Source of the DNA: Candidatus Peribacter riflensis
GTDB lineage: Bacteria; Patescibacteriota; Gracilibacteria; Peribacterales; Peribacteraceae
NCBI GenBank assembly: GCA_001430755.1
Contig: CP013062.1
Coordinates: 810,001 to 842,000 of the forward strand
Length of the DNA: 32,000 bases
Direction of reading: 5' to 3'
A program made the translations under genes and the position numbers. The notes beneath the pieces are model-generated. The model did no database searches and was not told where the DNA came from. It worked only from the letters and a program-made list of their open reading frames with translations. Below are positions 24,810-32,000 of the stretch, one piece after another (position 1 is the first letter of the stretch; every line of letters begins with the position of its first letter).

Positions 24810-26072
24810 CTATGCGAGCACTTTCCCAGCCGGTAGAACCTCTACCTTCCCCGTCCTCCGGTCCTTCACTTCCACTCCCCCCGCCTTCAGGCTCTTTAAG
24901 GAAACGACGACGCGGGTGGGAACGCCCAGAAGATCCGCATCGTTGAGCCGGGATCCCACCGAATCCCCCAGCCGGTCATCGAGCAGGCAGCTCACCCCCT
25001 TCTTCGAAAGCGAACGGTAGAGATCCTGCGCCACGGTGAAGGGCTCCTCCTGCTCATCTTTCGCCAACGGAACGATGAGCACCTGCGCTGGGGCGACGGA
25101 TGCGGGCCACACGAGTCCCGCTTTATCCGCGAAGGCCTCGGCGATGATGCCCATGAGCCGCGAAATGCCGATGCCGTAACACCCCATGAGAATCGGATGC
25201 ACGGCACCCTTCTCATCGTTGAACGTGAGCTTGAACGGTTCTGAGAACTTCGTGCCGAGCTTGAAGATATTGGCCGCCTCGCTGGCGCGCTCCTCGCGGA
25301 ATTCCTTGCCACCCGTGACGGGACAGACCGTCTTCTGCGCGTCGAAGATCTCGCGGTTCACCGCAATGCGCTTGCCCTGCTTCTCAGCCTCGATGCTGAC
25401 GAAGATGGCATCCTCCCCCTGAGGCAGGAGCACCTGGTACTCGTGGGAGTACGGCGAAAAGGAGCCACCCGAAGCGTAAGTGAGATAGGTGCGATCGGTG
25501 AGCTCCAGCCGCTGAAAAATCTTGTCGTACGCCCCCTGAACCTTCTCGTAGTACCGATCCAGGCACGCAGCGTCCGGGTGGAACGAATAGAGATCCTTCA
25601 TGAGAAATTCGCGTCCACGGAGGATGCCCGACTTGGCCCGGAGCTCATTGCGAAACTTCGTCTGGATCTGGTAGCAGCCGAAGGGCAGATCACGGTACGA
25701 ATGGACGAATTGGGCCACGAGCGGGACGACGATCTCTTCATGAGTGGGATTGAGGGCGTACTCCTGCTCCCCTGCAGCCGGCACATGGAAGAGTGGTTCG
25801 AAGACCTTCTTGTCCCACCGCCCCGTCTTCTCCCAATACTCGCGCGGAGCCAGTGCCGACATCAGCACCTCCTGCCCGCCGATGGCATCCATCTCTTCGC
25901 GGACGATTTGCTCGATCTTGCGCAGCACCGTGAGCCCCAGGGGCAGAAAGGAATACACGCCAGCCATCGTTTTGTTGATGAAACCGCCACGCGTGAGGAG
26001 CTCGGCATTGATACTCTTGGCATCGGCCGCGGCATCTTTGGAAGTGCGGGTGAAGAGGTGGGAGAGGAGCAT
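24810..26072 (-). CDS. proS: proline--tRNA ligase, short form lacking the INS editing domain
   Basis: Class II motifs RGREFLMKDLYSFH (motif 2) and GCYGIGISRL (motif 3), plus a C-terminal anticodon-binding domain. Only a short segment lies between motifs 2 and 3. Confidence 0.93.
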   Translation of the reverse strand: MLLSHLFTRTSKDAAADAKSINAELLTRGGFINKTMAGVYSFLPLGLTVLRKIEQIVREEMDAIGGQEVLMSALAPREYWEKTGRWDKKVFEPLFHVPAAGEQEYALNPTHEEIVVPLVAQFVHSYRDLPFGCYQIQTKFRNELRAKSGILRGREFLMKDLYSFHPDAACLDRYYEKVQGAYDKIFQRLELTDRTYLTYASGGSFSPYSHEYQVLLPQGEDAIFVSIEAEKQGKRIAVNREIFDAQKTVCPVTGGKEFREERASEAANIFKLGTKFSEPFKLTFNDEKGAVHPILMGCYGIGISRLMGIIAEAFADKAGLVWPASVAPAQVLIVPLAKDEQEEPFTVAQDLYRSLSKKGVSCLLDDRLGDSVGSRLNDADLLGVPTRVVVSLKSLKAGGVEVKDRRTGKVEVLPAGKVLA

Positions 26073-26148: not shown

Positions 26149-26571
26149 TTAACTGATCGCTATTCCCGCCATCGTTACCACGGCGCCAAACGCGATCCCC
26201 GCGAAGACTTCGGCGAACGAATGGCCGAGCGTCTCGCGGAGGCGATGGAAGCGCTGGAGCACATTCAGCACCCGCGCCTGCTCCCCCAGAACCGCCCGGA
26301 CCCCGATGGCGTCGTACCAGACGATGCAGGCAAGCACGACCGTGATAGCGAATTCAACGGAATCCGTTCCCATCTTGTGCCCCACCACGATGAGGAGCGA
26401 CATGACGAATGCGGAGTGTGTGCTGGGCATGCCCCCCTGCTGAAAGAGATGCCGGTGCCCGGCGCCGGACCGGAATTCCTCCACGATGAACTTCACGATC
26501 TCGGTGAGCACGAGCACCACCAGCGGGATGAGAAAGAGGTAGGTGCGGAGGAGGTCGCTAAAGGAAATCAT
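26149..26571 (-). CDS. divergent PAP2 / DUF212 family membrane protein
   Basis: GGMPSTHSAFV signature and a four-TM layout. Start is placed at the ATG at 26571. The upstream extension in the track ORF is the translated dispersed repeat. Confidence 0.8.
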   Translation of the reverse strand: MISFSDLLRTYLFLIPLVVLVLTEIVKFIVEEFRSGAGHRHLFQQGGMPSTHSAFVMSLLIVVGHKMGTDSVEFAITVVLACIVWYDAIGVRAVLGEQARVLNVLQRFHRLRETLGHSFAEVFAGIAFGAVVTMAGIAIS

Positions 26572-26619
26572 ATGCCAGGAGTATAAAGGAAATGGATCCG
26601 ATAGTGCATCCTGACAACT

Positions 26620-26687
26620 ATGGAGAGAAAAACCGGCTTGTCGGCCGTAGCCTTGGCGAAGGCTGAAGGTGTGTCTCTCATGAATCA
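26620..26687. repeat. dispersed palindromic repeat, copy 2 (short form)
   Basis: Reads ATGGAGAGAAAAACCGGCTTGTCGGCCGTAGCC-TTGGC-GAAGGCTGAAGGTGTGTCTCTCATGAATCA. It has the same ends as the copy at 9867-9968 but lacks the central 33 or so nt. It starts immediately after the nuclease gene stop. Confidence 0.8.
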
Positions 26688-27530
26688 AACCGCCGCCACA
26701 TCACAAATCCCCCTGTACGGACACCGCTTGCAGACTAGCGCACTCGGGGTGGGCCGAAAGTCCTTCGCCTCCATGCGCTCGCGGATGAGCTTGATCTGCG
26801 TGCGCGCGTCTTTGAGCTGCGAGGGGGACCGCGCGGTCGTCCGCTCCGTCACGCCCTCCTCCGAAAGGAAGAGGAGAACGAGCTCGGAACAGGGCTTGTC
26901 GAAAAGGTGCCCAGCGGCGAGTGCGTACAGCGAAAGCTGCAGATCGGCGTCGGCCTCGGCCTGTGTGCAGGGCGCGGTGGTCTTGAAATCCACGATGGAA
27001 ACTCCCTGCTCCGTCTGCTCGATGCGGTCGAGCCTCCCCGTCACGTGCATGCCGTCAATCTCGACTGCAAACCCCTTCTCCACTGCAACGACCTTGCGCG
27101 GAACCTGGGACCACCATCCATGGAATTGCCGCATAATTTCCTCGCCCCGCTTGCGGGCGAAATCCGCCTCGAGGCGCGTCTTGTACGTATCGAAGACGAA
27201 ACATTCGTGCCAGATCTCCAGCAGTTTCTGCTCCGTTACATCCGCGTGCACGGACGCTTTCTCTTCGCGAAAGAGAATGAGCTGATCCTCCCGCACCCCT
27301 TGTCCTTGTCCTTTTCCCTTAGTCCTTAGTCCTTTGTCCTTCGTCTCCAGTCCTCCACCGAACAACTTCATCTCCTCTTCGCCCCATTGCTTCAACGCAT
27401 TATGCACGCTGCCGCCGAAACTCTCTCCTTCCGAAACGCCCCACGGAATTTTTTTGACGTGCGAAAATTCAAACTGACGGGGGCAGGTACGATAGCGTCG
27501 AAGCTGGGAGTAAGAGAGGGACACGGACAA
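26685..27530 (-). CDS. PD-(D/E)XK nuclease, Cas4/RecB-like with 4-Cys cluster
   Basis: N-terminal CPRQF plus C-terminal CKRCPYRGIC gives the C...CxxCxxxxxC pattern of Cas4/AddB 4Fe-4S nucleases. The catalytic core is GRLDRIE...SIVDFKT, followed by QLSLYALA (QxxxY). Confidence 0.8.
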   Translation of the reverse strand: MSVSLSYSQLRRYRTCPRQFEFSHVKKIPWGVSEGESFGGSVHNALKQWGEEEMKLFGGGLETKDKGLRTKGKGQGQGVREDQLILFREEKASVHADVTEQKLLEIWHECFVFDTYKTRLEADFARKRGEEIMRQFHGWWSQVPRKVVAVEKGFAVEIDGMHVTGRLDRIEQTEQGVSIVDFKTTAPCTQAEADADLQLSLYALAAGHLFDKPCSELVLLFLSEEGVTERTTARSPSQLKDARTQIKLIRERMEAKDFRPTPSALVCKRCPYRGICDVAAV

Positions 27531-27566: not shown

Positions 27567-30500
27567 TCACCACTGATGCTTCATGTTCGCGAGAATGCGC
27601 CGGTAGGGGCTGGAGAATACCCCGCCCGTGACGACACCTTCTGTCATTAAATTATTGAGGAGTGTGTTGAGGAATATTGATTTATTCTCCGCATCGCGAT
27701 AGGAAGGCCATAGTTCCTGATGAAGATGGCTCAGATACTCTCTTCCAGTCCATCCGTTGCCTCCGCGGTACTGCGCCATGCGTAGAATTCGACCAAGCTC
27801 TTCGTGACGGACACTCTCGACAAATGCGGGATCCCGGGCGCGCGGGTGGCCGGCAAGATTCATAGGCGTCACAAGAACGTCACGGGTGAGTTGCTGGTCC
27901 TCACGGGTGAAATCGGAAGAAGGTTCCGCCCGCAACGTATCCAGGGTGACGGTAAAATTTTGGCTCTTGCCACCCTGCAGCACCTGGAAACGGAAAGGTG
28001 TCGGTTCAATTTCCGGCGCAGATGAAGACATTGCACTGGCTGTCTGGATATCGCTGATTTCAACGTCGGCATCGCCGAAGCGGCCGCGGAACAAGCCGGG
28101 GGCACGTCTCATCTGATGATGCTGGTCATCGACCTGATACTCGCCGGGAACGTATCCGACCATGCCAGTGTGAATCTGAGCGAGCGCGGCTGTGCGCAAC
28201 TGCGTCTGCGCGGCAATGGTCTCTGCACGCTTGGGGGCTTCTTTCTGCCACGTATCGCTGGCAGTCTGCTGCGCCTGCTCCGCCTGTTGCGCACGCTGTC
28301 GCTTCTCCTCCTCTGCCTTTTGCCTCCGTTCCATCAGAGCTTTTTTGGCCTCCTGCAGCAGTGTTTCCGCTCCCGGACGGGCGAGGAATTCCTGCAGTGT
28401 AAGCGGCCGGTCCAAGCCATCGATCAGCCCGACATCGGGCATGCTCGACAGACGGAATGTGCCCGCACCGCGCTGCAGCACGCTCACCTTGCCGGAATCG
28501 AGATCGCCGAAGATGTAGGTGGCGAGGACACCGGTATGATTGCCCCCGAGGTCCTGTCTCTCCAGAAGCACTGCCTGCAGACGATTGGTCTCGAAGCCCG
28601 ATGCCCCGGCCTTCGGATACTTGATGAGCCGGGCAAGCCGACGATCCGGGTGGCCAGCGCCGCGGGTAAACACAACCGGTCCATTCGCGCCGTAGAGTTC
28701 GTCGTACGAAGGAGAGCGACGCAGAGCCGCTCCTGAAGCGGTCTTGGCGGAAAGCCGATCGAGCCCTTCGGTGATGGAGGTGCGTGCCGCGTCATAGCTG
28801 GCGGCATCGCGCGAGCGGCCCACCAGATCGAGGATGCTCGTGTTCTGATGCACCGGCGGCTCGCCGAGCTTTTCGGCGATCATGTTGGCCGCATGGAAGG
28901 GGGCGGCATAGAAGAGAGCATCCAGCTGATCGACAGCCGATGCCTGGTGTGTGAGGCGCGAGAGCGACCAGTCGTTCCAGCGCCTGCGCTTATCCGCCTC
29001 TTCTTCGCCAAGTGTCTGTGCGGTGAGTTGCTTCAGTTTGAGCTGCATTGCAGGATCATCCACAAGACCAAACAGCTGGTCCCGGTTACCGAAATCAATG
29101 GCAGCCGAAAGCCCGGAAACCGAGGATGGTGAAACGACGAACAGCCGCTCGTTCTGACGCACTTTCTCTGCACGCGTACCGCCACTTGTTTGATTGAGCT
29201 GTCCAAGCAGCGCCTGCAAGGAAAGCTCAGCGCGTGTTTTGCCGTTATTCTGCGCGAGGAGCTCCGGCGGAATCTCATTCAGCCGCCGCCCGAAGACCTG
29301 TACGCCACCCATTGCGTTCACCAGCCGTACCAAGCCCGCATGACGTTCGTCTGTTTCGGCAATCGTCCCGAGGAAGGAGCGATATTCCAGATACCGTTTC
29401 TCGCGGACATGCTGGAGATAGCATACGGATGCACGCCGCATCGCTTCGCGGATATCCATGAGTGTTACATTCGTCGCCGTAAGTCCCAACGCGTTGACGC
29501 CGATATCACCGCTCTGTGCAGCCTGCAGTGGAATATCCTCCGCACGTGCCGCAGCGAAAAGTTGCGCAGAGAACATCGGCAGAACGAACTGCGCGAAATC
29601 TTCGCGATAGAACCGATCGAGAACATCGGGCGACCACATGCCGCCGACAGATTCGGCGAACACCTCGGGGGCATTCTGCATGAGTTCGCGGACAAAAATG
29701 CTGTAGAGCATCCGCTTGCGGATTTCGGGCTTGTCCTTTGATCCATCTGCTGCAGAGTCCTTCGAAGACGGGAAAAAATCCGAGAGCATCCAGCTCGAAC
29801 CACGTTCGAGCCAGTCATACTCCCCCTCCCCCGTCGCAGCCTGAGATCCGAGAATGCAGAGAAGCCAGGGAGGGGCATCTGCAAGGAACTCACGCATCTT
29901 TGACTGTTCCCACGCGTTGATGCCCGTGCGAATGGCAACCTCCACGCCGACGACCACAAGGCCTGCCGGACCCGTGAACGCTTTCGCACCCATGAGGATG
30001 GTGGCTGCAAGCCCGGCTGCCGTATTGGCTGTGCGGAGCTTCTGCGCCATCTCCCGATCGTCAAAAACACGTCCGACATTGGAATCGATCACTTTATTCA
30101 CGCCCTGCAGGCTGACCTCCACTCCGGTAACTTTGTGCTGGTACCTGCCATAAGCCAATCGCGTGAAGTGCGGGTTACGGTCCAGATCCTGGTGTAACTG
30201 GTCGATCACTCCGCGCACATGCTTGTCCGCTGCATCGCGCTGCTTCTCGATCTCACCGATCTCCTGATAGTCAGCATAGAGTGCCAGGCCCTGCAGGCCG
30301 ACTCCCCCCACGTACGCCGCACGGGCGAACGGCGATGCTGATCGCCAGCTATTCATCCAGTGCGCATGCAACCGCCGGGCAGGATAGGTGGCTCCGGTGA
30401 GGAGCGTATTGCCGGCTGCCGCCGTCCGATCGACGAGCCCGACGTTCATCAGCGGCCGTGCACCGAGGCGGACGGCTTTCCGCAACGACGATTCTGTCGC

Positions 30501-32000
30501 CACCCGGCTCGCCCTGCTGATGAGTTCATCGAGCTGCACAATCGCCGGGTCCCCGACGGGAAGCTTCGCCTTTTCGGCCTGTAGGAAATCGACGAGCTGC
30601 TCCCATGCCCTCCTGGAATCAAGCGGGCGCATGGTCCGCACGAACTGGTCGCAGAGACGGTTCCCCATTTCAGCCGTCGCAGGCTGTTCCACGAGACCGT
30701 TAATGATTTCGTCCATCTTCTTGATGACTGCATTGGCATCGCGCACGGCAGATGGGCTTGCGCGCCAGGGATGCAGAATCGTGTTATCGAGTGTCCGCAT
30801 GAAAATATTCCTCGCCTGTGTTCTCCCCGAGGCATCTCCAAGACGGCGGAGCACACGATATGGACGTGTGGAGAGGTGGGAGTACATCTTGGCGGCATAG
30901 GCAGCGACCCCGGTGAGGGGATAGGCGATCCAGGGATGTTCCCCGTAGATCGTATGCAGAACACCGGCAGTTTCGCGCGCTGTGGCAGCGGCGGCTCCGA
31001 GAGCGGCCTTCGCACCTGCAACAGTGAGGAAACTGATGGCCCGCTTGGCCTTGTCGAACACCTCCGGCGGCACGTCGACGAAACTCTTCTGCCACTCATC
31101 GGCACCCTCGGCAAGGGCCAATCTGCCGATGCGGTCGAGCATCGTCGTATCGCGGTAGCCATCCACGCTCGTGTCGTTCTTTCCGACATAGCGGAAAATT
31201 TCCACCTGAATCAGCAAAAGCCCGGTGGGATTCCCCTTTTGCACCATGCGCTGGTAGAGGAACAGGCGAACAGCCTGCGCCAGCGACATGCGATCGAGCA
31301 GTATTTCGGATACATGCTGGCGGTTTTCCGCCTCGCTGCCGCTCCAATCCCGATCGGGGAATAGCTTATGGAAGAACGGGAGGATGAAGGAAGGTGTTTC
31401 GCCCTCAATGGTATTGCAGACATCCGCCAGAAGCTCGCGCACGGGATCGCCTTCCTGGCCGGCCTGAGTGGACTTCTCCTGCGCCATCTTCTCCAAAAAT
31501 CCGTGCACCGACGTTTCACCCTCGCGCACAGCCACTTCGACCACGTGCATCGGATCAATATCCTTGAATCGCTCAGTGAGGACACCGGGCTTCTTGCGGT
31601 AGGCATCGATTTGCGAAGTGAGCTCGTGGCGGACGGCACCGCTGCGAATGAAGAGCGCTTCCGGCTTGAGCGCGTCTTTCAGATTTTCCACTCCAGTGAC
31701 CGCCACGGTCTCCACCACCATCGCCAGAGATTCCGCGCCGCGCGCAAAGGCATCGACGTACTCATCCACGGTCAGCTCGCCGATTTGCTCTTCAGTGAGG
31801 TCGGGGCGCAACCGGTGCAATTCTTCCCGCGCTTTCCAGCACACTTCGATCACATAGAACGCGGCCGCCTCGCGCCGGTCGAAATCTTCATTGAGAACCC
31901 GAACGCGATTGCGATCAATGGCAATGTCCCGCACGCCCTGCGTGCTCTCGTCGACGTGTACGCATTCGAAGAAATCTTTCACTTTGCGCTGCTTGTTGTG
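27567..32000 (-). CDS. giant hypothetical protein, at least 1471 aa, N-terminus beyond the window
   Basis: A single uninterrupted minus-strand ORF. The frame stays open from the GTG at 31982 to the window edge. No catalytic motif recognised. Hydrophobic segments cluster around aa 315-716, and a charged coiled-coil-like stretch spans about aa 1205-1265. Confidence 0.7.
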   Translation of the reverse strand, partial: HNKQRKVKDFFECVHVDESTQGVRDIAIDRNRVRVLNEDFDRREAAAFYVIEVCWKAREELHRLRPDLTEEQIGELTVDEYVDAFARGAESLAMVVETVAVTGVENLKDALKPEALFIRSGAVRHELTSQIDAYRKKPGVLTERFKDIDPMHVVEVAVREGETSVHGFLEKMAQEKSTQAGQEGDPVRELLADVCNTIEGETPSFILPFFHKLFPDRDWSGSEAENRQHVSEILLDRMSLAQAVRLFLYQRMVQKGNPTGLLLIQVEIFRYVGKNDTSVDGYRDTTMLDRIGRLALAEGADEWQKSFVDVPPEVFDKAKRAISFLTVAGAKAALGAAAATARETAGVLHTIYGEHPWIAYPLTGVAAYAAKMYSHLSTRPYRVLRRLGDASGRTQARNIFMRTLDNTILHPWRASPSAVRDANAVIKKMDEIINGLVEQPATAEMGNRLCDQFVRTMRPLDSRRAWEQLVDFLQAEKAKLPVGDPAIVQLDELISRASRVATESSLRKAVRLGARPLMNVGLVDRTAAAGNTLLTGATYPARRLHAHWMNSWRSASPFARAAYVGGVGLQGLALYADYQEIGEIEKQRDAADKHVRGVIDQLHQDLDRNPHFTRLAYGRYQHKVTGVEVSLQGVNKVIDSNVGRVFDDREMAQKLRTANTAAGLAATILMGAKAFTGPAGLVVVGVEVAIRTGINAWEQSKMREFLADAPPWLLCILGSQAATGEGEYDWLERGSSWMLSDFFPSSKDSAADGSKDKPEIRKRMLYSIFVRELMQNAPEVFAESVGGMWSPDVLDRFYREDFAQFVLPMFSAQLFAAARAEDIPLQAAQSGDIGVNALGLTATNVTLMDIREAMRRASVCYLQHVREKRYLEYRSFLGTIAETDERHAGLVRLVNAMGGVQVFGRRLNEIPPELLAQNNGKTRAELSLQALLGQLNQTSGGTRAEKVRQNERLFVVSPSSVSGLSAAIDFGNRDQLFGLVDDPAMQLKLKQLTAQTLGEEEADKRRRWNDWSLSRLTHQASAVDQLDALFYAAPFHAANMIAEKLGEPPVHQNTSILDLVGRSRDAASYDAARTSITEGLDRLSAKTASGAALRRSPSYDELYGANGPVVFTRGAGHPDRRLARLIKYPKAGASGFETNRLQAVLLERQDLGGNHTGVLATYIFGDLDSGKVSVLQRGAGTFRLSSMPDVGLIDGLDRPLTLQEFLARPGAETLLQEAKKALMERRQKAEEEKRQRAQQAEQAQQTASDTWQKEAPKRAETIAAQTQLRTAALAQIHTGMVGYVPGEYQVDDQHHQMRRAPGLFRGRFGDADVEISDIQTASAMSSSAPEIEPTPFRFQVLQGGKSQNFTVTLDTLRAEPSSDFTREDQQLTRDVLVTPMNLAGHPRARDPAFVESVRHEELGRILRMAQYRGGNGWTGREYLSHLHQELWPSYRDAENKSIFLNTLLNNLMTEGVVTGGVFSSPYRRILANMKHQW

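Follow-up and report, generated by a model that had tools for sequence, protein, structure and literature searches.

In a 32,000-nt stretch of the closed genome of Candidatus Peribacter riflensis, an uncultured bacterium from groundwater (the window; positions 810001-842000 of 1,248,026 bp, 58.5% GC), a minus-strand gene encodes a protein of 1,865 amino acids (aa), here called the giant. It belongs to an orphan family that is new and clearly delimited, and its predicted fold has no match. This family is restricted, in the genomes sampled, to the Peribacter lineage, one GTDB family of the candidate phyla radiation (CPR), and has no relative of known function or fold. The giant itself is a mosaic of N-terminal, middle and C modules, the last of which carries a conserved, uncharged helical hairpin. 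The reading favoured in this report, with a probability of roughly 0.45, is that the giant is a cysteine-poor, signal-less and non-enzymatic helical scaffold, mainly cytoplasmic, which hairpins attach to the membrane. CPR bacteria account for much of the diversity of bacteria, and a considerable share of their proteins has no annotation; with members of up to 4.5 kaa (thousand amino acids), a confident predicted fold and no known relative, the giant family offers a well-delimited target for lineage-specific cell biology.

A lineage-restricted family without known relatives

The initial annotation, made from the letters of the window, described a large open reading frame (ORF) that was still open at the window edge. 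The whole-genome check bears this out, as the ORF extends 1,164 nt beyond the edge to an ATG at genome position 843164, a start supported by the conservation of the N-terminus in orthologs; the length of 1,471 aa given earlier corresponds to an internal GTG close to the edge. The extension also yielded the upstream genes, up399, up460 and up68. Gene decay, raised at the outset as a possibility, is not what relatives suggest: homologous frames in related genomes are open, mostly long and free of stops, and the giant gene is therefore not decaying but real and intact.

Genome 837567-843164 (L002:1568-7165), minus strand: full giant gene, 1,865 aa
Window 27567..32000, minus strand: window part of the giant gene, aa 389-1865 plus the stop codon; orthologs of 1,807-1,871 aa at 37-98% identity

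Nor is the giant an ORFan in the sense of a singleton, as it had been called, since there is a paralog in the same genome as well as at least 150 related clusters in the lineage. The full-length relatives, nine in number, came from a word-indexed search, and a second search with aa 915-1500 added five that are more distant. The paralog (592176-596903, 1,575 aa), recovered by BLAST against all ORFs of the genome, resembles the giant only over aa 915-1862, at 30% identity, and the two family genes together amount to 3.4 kaa of the 1.25-Mb genome. The clusters, at least 150, come from an exhaustive search of 1.84 billion representatives with a profile (A4) built on the C-terminal 951 aa, and at least 135 of them are at E <= 1e-10; among the matches listed, those of full length are mostly 1.1-4.5 kaa, and the region most widely held in common lies at profile positions 20-420, i.e. 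approximately aa 935-1335 (the C-core). The giant has the three marks of this hairpin-core family, namely a match to the C-core profile, the uncharged Gly-Pro hairpin and a PPWLL motif. In whole genomes, the A4 profile had matches in 13 of 40 from the window's GTDB family vs 0 of 260 from other families of the class, and approximately 390 further genomes of the phylum gave one 51-residue chance-level match only. With the full giant as query, 41 of 101 family genomes contained matches. Homologs and related contigs carry the names Candidatus Peribacter or Peregrinibacteria.

Within the genome, a profile of the giant family (A1) matches only the paralog and, marginally, a 168-aa ORF outside the window (genome 181481-181987, plus strand; profile positions 215-357, E 1.2e-4). 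The matched part corresponds to the second N-terminal hydrophobic helix and the helix after it, and the ORF may be a stand-alone copy of an anchor piece or a chance match.

Profile and structure searches assigned the giant to no known family, in agreement with the initial annotation. At curated thresholds, the giant, its paralog and the upstream genes returned nothing from Pfam, NCBIfam, PADLOC or PHROGs, the sole sub-threshold family match of the giant being DUF2939 (15.1 bits vs a cut-off of 24.8). Likewise, Pfam matches are missing from 14 of the largest distant relatives (2.7-4.5 kaa), and five positional relatives with other bodies have no family match above threshold. A profile search of PDB sequences with the giant gave 0 matches at E <= 1. 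With a fold match defined as a Foldseek E <= 0.001 or a PDB profile match, nothing significant was found for a model of the C-module (best E 0.59 in PDB and 0.083 in BFVD) or, against PDB, for a model of the N-terminal half (best E 0.28). No internal repeats were found in the giant. Readings as a defence, phage, tape-measure or toxin protein were rejected on the lack of any PADLOC, PHROG or PDB profile match, the tape-measure rows in BFVD being non-significant at E > 1, and a motif search for an N-terminal tag shared with the other orphan giants of the genome found nothing.

As first reported, enzymatic motifs are missing: Walker A, HExxH, GxSxG and CxxC were all absent from a scan of the 1,865 aa. 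A catalytic site was also sought among family-conserved residues; the only polar ones are H1252, E1255, T1310 and R1311 (81-96%), which form no recognisable motif, and the others are mostly Pro, Gly, Phe and Leu. This composition fits a structural protein better than an enzyme.

Modular architecture and the conserved hairpin

The AlphaFold2 model of the C-module (951 aa) has a mean pLDDT (predicted local distance difference test score) of 79.2 and a pTM (predicted template modelling score) of 0.64. Within it, a 52-residue helix is followed by a small beta meander, a helical hairpin of 42+31 residues, further helices and a beta domain, and then by a 65-residue helix, a second beta domain and a C-terminal helical domain. 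The main features, in window coordinates, are as follows.

27570..30422, minus strand: C-module, aa 915-1865, in common with the 1,575-aa paralog and at least 150 giant-protein clusters
29925..30035, minus strand: family signature, aa 1044-1080, a hairpin of uncharged helices with a Gly-Pro turn at its centre, and then the PPWLL motif
30273..30320, minus strand: hydrophobic start of the 52-residue helix, aa 949-964, which packs against the hairpin in the model
30882..31040, minus strand: second helix pair, Ala/Gly-rich and weakly hydrophobic, aa 709-727 and 745-761, within the middle module; low model confidence
28176..28370, minus strand: 65-residue Lys/Glu/Gln-rich helix, aa 1599-1663 (model helix 685-749), the coiled coil of the initial annotation
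28401..28676, minus strand: beta-rich domain 1 of the model, aa 1497-1588
27948..28163, minus strand: beta-rich domain 2 of the model, aa 1668-1739
27573..27905, minus strand: C-terminal helical domain, aa 1754-1864, highly conserved among orthologs

The four hydrophobic segments and the Lys/Glu/Gln-rich helix that had been picked out by eye lie where they were placed, at aa 709-727, 745-761, 949-964, 1049-1078 and 1605-1633, respectively (window 29931-31040 for the segments and 28266-28352 for the helix). Of the proposed C-terminal coiled coil, the Lys/Glu/Gln-rich helix stands, but it is modelled as a single helix of 65 residues between two beta domains. The hydrophobic module is confirmed, and no other part of the giant is as conserved. 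When 158 family sequences were aligned to the profile and charge was counted across approximately 125 members, some 34 columns (aa ~1044-1077) mostly had charged residues at 5% or less. The hairpin turn is conserved at P1066 (82%) and G1068 (80%), and the PPWLL motif at P1098 (92%). A second uncharged block in the alignment, aa 949-963, forms together with both hairpin arms one end of a three-helix bundle in the model. Outside the window are two further hydrophobic helices (aa 190-208 and 232-250), and the model of the N-terminal 930 aa is all-helical with a mean pLDDT of 60.1, being confident only at aa 45-130, 365-660 and 810-900.

The mosaic character of the giant emerges from comparison of loci. 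A same-genus species, G065 (locus L037), retains the flanking genes of the window, i.e. proS (87% identity), DUF212 (82%) and a nuclease gene (73%), as well as up399 (59%) and up460 (36%), and has at the giant's position a 1,701-aa ORF that matches only aa 45-296 and nothing else in the P. riflensis genome. At equal flank distance, locus L023 has a full-length ortholog with 54% identity. Other genomes contain giants of 1,258-1,451 aa that consist of N-terminal and middle modules only, or giants with the C-module only. Compared with the flanking genes (72-87% identity), the giant (54%) and the upstream genes (30-55%) diverge faster.

Two sets of small orphan genes accompany these modules. The genes up399 (~384 aa), up460 (~437 aa) and up68 (~68 aa) track this locus and the N-terminal module, also in G065. 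The genes par132 and par204, the small neighbours of the paralog, are found ahead of C-core giants, both in loci of the paralog type and in distant members of 3.5-4.4 kaa; directly upstream of the window's giant there are no par132-like or par204-like genes, up399, up460 and up68 being there instead. Each partner gene is single-copy in the genome, the lone par132 and par204 being those beside the paralog. The pattern predicts that the locus-bound N-terminal module binds one partner set and the C-core the other. Between up399 and up460 there is weak similarity (E 0.023 over the C-terminal 130 aa), and homology of up460, which has a W/G-rich motif, to the giant's N-terminal module was rejected (BLASTP E 0.46, hhalign probability 6%). 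One upstream partner of a distant relative has a sub-threshold EzrA/spectrin-like match (16.6 bits vs a cut-off of 39.6). The gaps from up399 through to proS are 19 (with the Met-24 start of up460), 8, 9, 36, -4 and 76 nt, and an internal up399 ATG (MAPPD...) has, 24 nt upstream of it, a TTGTGA-18-TATAAT site extended by TG; this ATG is the start that gives the ~384 aa matching the up399 orthologs. Because of these short gaps and the promoter-like site, up399 to proS are probably one transcription unit.

Three other loci (L023:8824-9669, L025:2231-3046 and L026:4057-4920) contain, between up460 and up68, one more orphan gene (~280 aa), which is missing here, where the interval from up460 to the giant is only 225 nt and contains up68. 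In L043 (G046:C15:1-12000), a 1,342-aa giant with N-terminal and middle modules comes directly before par132-like and par204-like genes together with an 891-aa protein resembling the paralog's N-terminus; adjacent cassette types of this kind could give rise to fusions like the window's giant.

A proposed membrane-attached scaffold and its alternatives

The N-terminal module (aa 1-300), with a predicted small helical domain, a linker rich in Pro, two hydrophobic helices and a long helix, stays at its chromosomal position with the three orphan upstream genes, probably in one operon, and is followed by a helical middle module. The core of the C-module is, in the model, a three-helix bundle whose uncharged tip comprises the 34-residue Gly-Pro hairpin and the start of the 52-residue helix. 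According to the favoured reading, the hydrophobic hairpins would dip into the cytoplasmic membrane and hold there a largely cytoplasmic, non-enzymatic helical scaffold, which, jointly with its small orphan partners, may give the envelope its organisation or shape. Membrane association, put forward in the initial annotation, was assessed by Kyte-Doolittle (KD) windows and family-wide charge profiles and is plausible. A mainly cytoplasmic location is favoured because there is no signal peptide, because Cys makes up only 0.38% of residues and because the hydrophobic stretches are mostly paired, with short arms of ~15-19 residues, an arrangement in which the chain would return to the same side.

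The giant has no signal peptide and no hydrophobic N-terminus (maximum 12-residue KD -0.23), and Cys content across its family is 0-0.9%. The genome has 42 ORFs of at least 1,000 aa; Cys makes up 4.8-11% in approximately half of them, and a hydrophobic N-terminus is found in most of that half; large ORFs with such an N-terminus mostly have 5-11% Cys, and the Cys-poor orphan set (0.06-0.6%) is without one. Large Cys-rich proteins of Candidatus Peribacter riflensis have been described as exported (Anantharaman et al. 2016, PMC4736985). The giant has in common with them lineage, size, fast evolution and variability between strains or species, but their signal peptides and ~5-11% Cys are absent from the giant family, and the giant thus has neither mark of an exported Cys-rich protein. 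Reticulons and REEP/Yop1 proteins offer a likeness to the hairpin, in that their uncharged segments, ~30-35 residues long, turn in the middle and could not span the bilayer twice, a signal peptide is missing and both flanks are expected on the same side; they are, however, small and eukaryotic, whereas the giant has 1,865 aa with large helical and beta domains, and in the lack of any sequence or fold match the likeness is an analogy only. EzrA and the Mycoplasma HMW proteins combine, as the giant would, a membrane anchor with long helical or coiled regions, no catalytic motif and small co-encoded partner proteins, although they have no homology to the giant.

Several observations weigh against the scaffold. 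The model of the N-terminal half is poor (pLDDT 60), and hydropathy is modest, with KD peaks of 1.3-1.8. No stretch is more basic than the loop that joins the two N-terminal helices. The segment aa 949-963 has no partner helix, and its flanks, basic on the N-terminal side and acidic on the C-terminal side, resemble those of an N-in/C-out anchor; were this segment to span the membrane, the C-terminal 790 aa would be placed outside. Counts by the positive-inside rule did not point clearly to one topology. Moreover, fast divergence, along with replacement of the body between close species, is typical of host-contact or conflict proteins and not of housekeeping scaffolds.

The basic loop and the flank charges of aa 949-963 keep in play a role in host contact, doubtful though it is, in which the giant or its C-terminal 790 aa would be exposed or delivered outside and the buried, uncharged hairpin would enter a partner cell's membrane to make a pore, a translocon or a fusion-like device serving a presumed symbiotic lifestyle. 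An Ala/Gly-rich helical hairpin flanked by amphipathic helices is the insertion hairpin of pore-forming colicins and of the diphtheria toxin T domain, and that of the giant resembles these in principle; in these proteins and in Bcl-2-like ones, the hairpin likewise lies among amphipathic helices with no export signal. Yet there is no Foldseek or profile match to any pore-former in PDB, size and architecture are different, no immunity-like gene stands near the giant, and the hairpin arms, at ~15-17 residues, are short for a full membrane crossing. The much faster evolution of the giant and its upstream genes than of the flanks would suit host contact, as would the role in attachment to hosts that has been proposed for giant membrane proteins in related CPR bacteria (PMC8080830, PMC4736985); against this stand the missing signal peptide, a Cys content unlike that of the mostly Cys-rich, signal-bearing giants of the genome, and the lack of any secretion-system gene in the loci examined. 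A bolder version, rather improbable as it stands, is that hairpin-core giants and their small partners (par132/par204, or up399/up460/up68 here) form an undescribed apparatus of the Peribacter lineage that inserts into or remodels membranes at host contact. If true, it would be a new kind of pore, fusion or feeding device, and module swapping would track host range. It is unlikely, at the other extreme, that the giant is soluble and cytoplasmic, its Ala/Gly-rich 'hydrophobic' helices being buried bundle cores with no membrane role. The modest hydropathy, the many Ala and Gly residues in the segments, their placement by AlphaFold inside long continuous helices and the presence of Lys1059 and Glu1075 within the hairpin would all agree with solubility, but ~34 consecutive columns nearly free of charge across ~125 diverged relatives would be unusual for a soluble bundle. 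The N-terminal pair is also the least confidently modelled, as expected for lipid-embedded helices, and the partner par204 has a hydrophobic stretch that is a candidate single transmembrane helix.

The nuclease neighbourhood

The co-directional genes downstream of the giant are those first described, with a nuclease gene 36 nt away and then DUF212 and proS.

26685..27530, minus strand: stand-alone PD-(D/E)XK nuclease (Cas4/AddB-like) with four cysteines of iron-sulphur (Fe-S) type; a neighbour, probably not a partner
26149..26688, minus strand: gene of DUF212 (divergent PAP2), with a 4-nt overlap at the nuclease stop
24810..26072, minus strand: proS (proline-tRNA ligase), end of the co-directional block

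The nuclease belongs to the PD-(D/E)XK superfamily (PF12705, 116.9 bits vs a cut-off of 22), and resembles the Cas4/AddB-type Fe-S nucleases in its four-cysteine pattern (C16 and C267-x2-C270-x5-C276) and its D...D-x-K core (D168...D181-F-K183). It differs from them in scoring below the Cas4 equivalog TIGR00372 (44.4 bits vs a cut-off of 65) and in having no adjacent helicase partner. There is no Cas1 (PF01867) in the closed genome, and by score and context the protein is thus not a CRISPR-associated Cas4.

The initial annotation also suggested that giant and nuclease form a functional pair, a two-gene unit for defence or DNA handling in which the giant would sense or anchor and the nuclease would be the effector. 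Such a unit is very improbable. Besides the common direction and the short gap, the adjacency speaks for it, as a giant gene (N-terminal, middle or C module) adjoins the nuclease in ~11 of 26 sampled genomes that have both, from ~10 genera, and so does the gene order at a giant relative, P0015 (1,532 aa), which is followed by RmuC, a protein that also carries a nuclease-type domain. The recurrence, however, is incomplete: lepA comes after the paralog, no nuclease is near the distant members examined, and in L044, L045 and L046 the giant has DUF212 beside it or close by, with no intervening nuclease. The sampled family genomes comprise 26 with both genes, 15 with the giant family only, 25 with the nuclease only and 35 with neither, the nuclease thus occurring in 25 of the 60 that have no family match, and co-occurrence is no more than relatedness would give. 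The nuclease is tied to DUF212-proS as tightly as to the giant, and no PADLOC model matches the giant, so that the two genes correspond to no known anti-phage system. The adjacency is read here as synteny, i.e. as the conserved order of a nuclease-DUF212-proS block beside a variable 'giant slot', the three genes being probably conserved neighbours rather than parts of a system. A giant-plus-nuclease 'defence pair', a tempting but weak lead, is thereby removed.

Several minor observations concern these neighbours. At the P0015 locus, RmuC (L030:11662-12741) stands in place of the PD-(D/E)XK nuclease, DUF212-proS lie 8 kb further on, and proS is of a long, 584-aa form with an editing domain. The proline-tRNA ligase of the window (24810-26072) has only 420 aa and matches the bacterial-type model NF006625 in two stretches, which is consistent with a short form that lacks the INS editing domain. 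In two loci (L023:15506-15757 and L027:12902-13153), the first 40 residues of the nuclease are repeated at 51% identity in a short ORF that lies immediately upstream of it, and in many genomes the nuclease match is split at a variable low-complexity insert at ~aa 55-78. Outside the window, a UvrC of 804 aa (L002:13476-15890, plus strand; genome 849475-851889) contains a GNAT acetyltransferase domain (PF00583, aa 541-622) inserted between the two RNase H-like domains; the insert is also in the L023 ortholog and not in the L029 ortholog.

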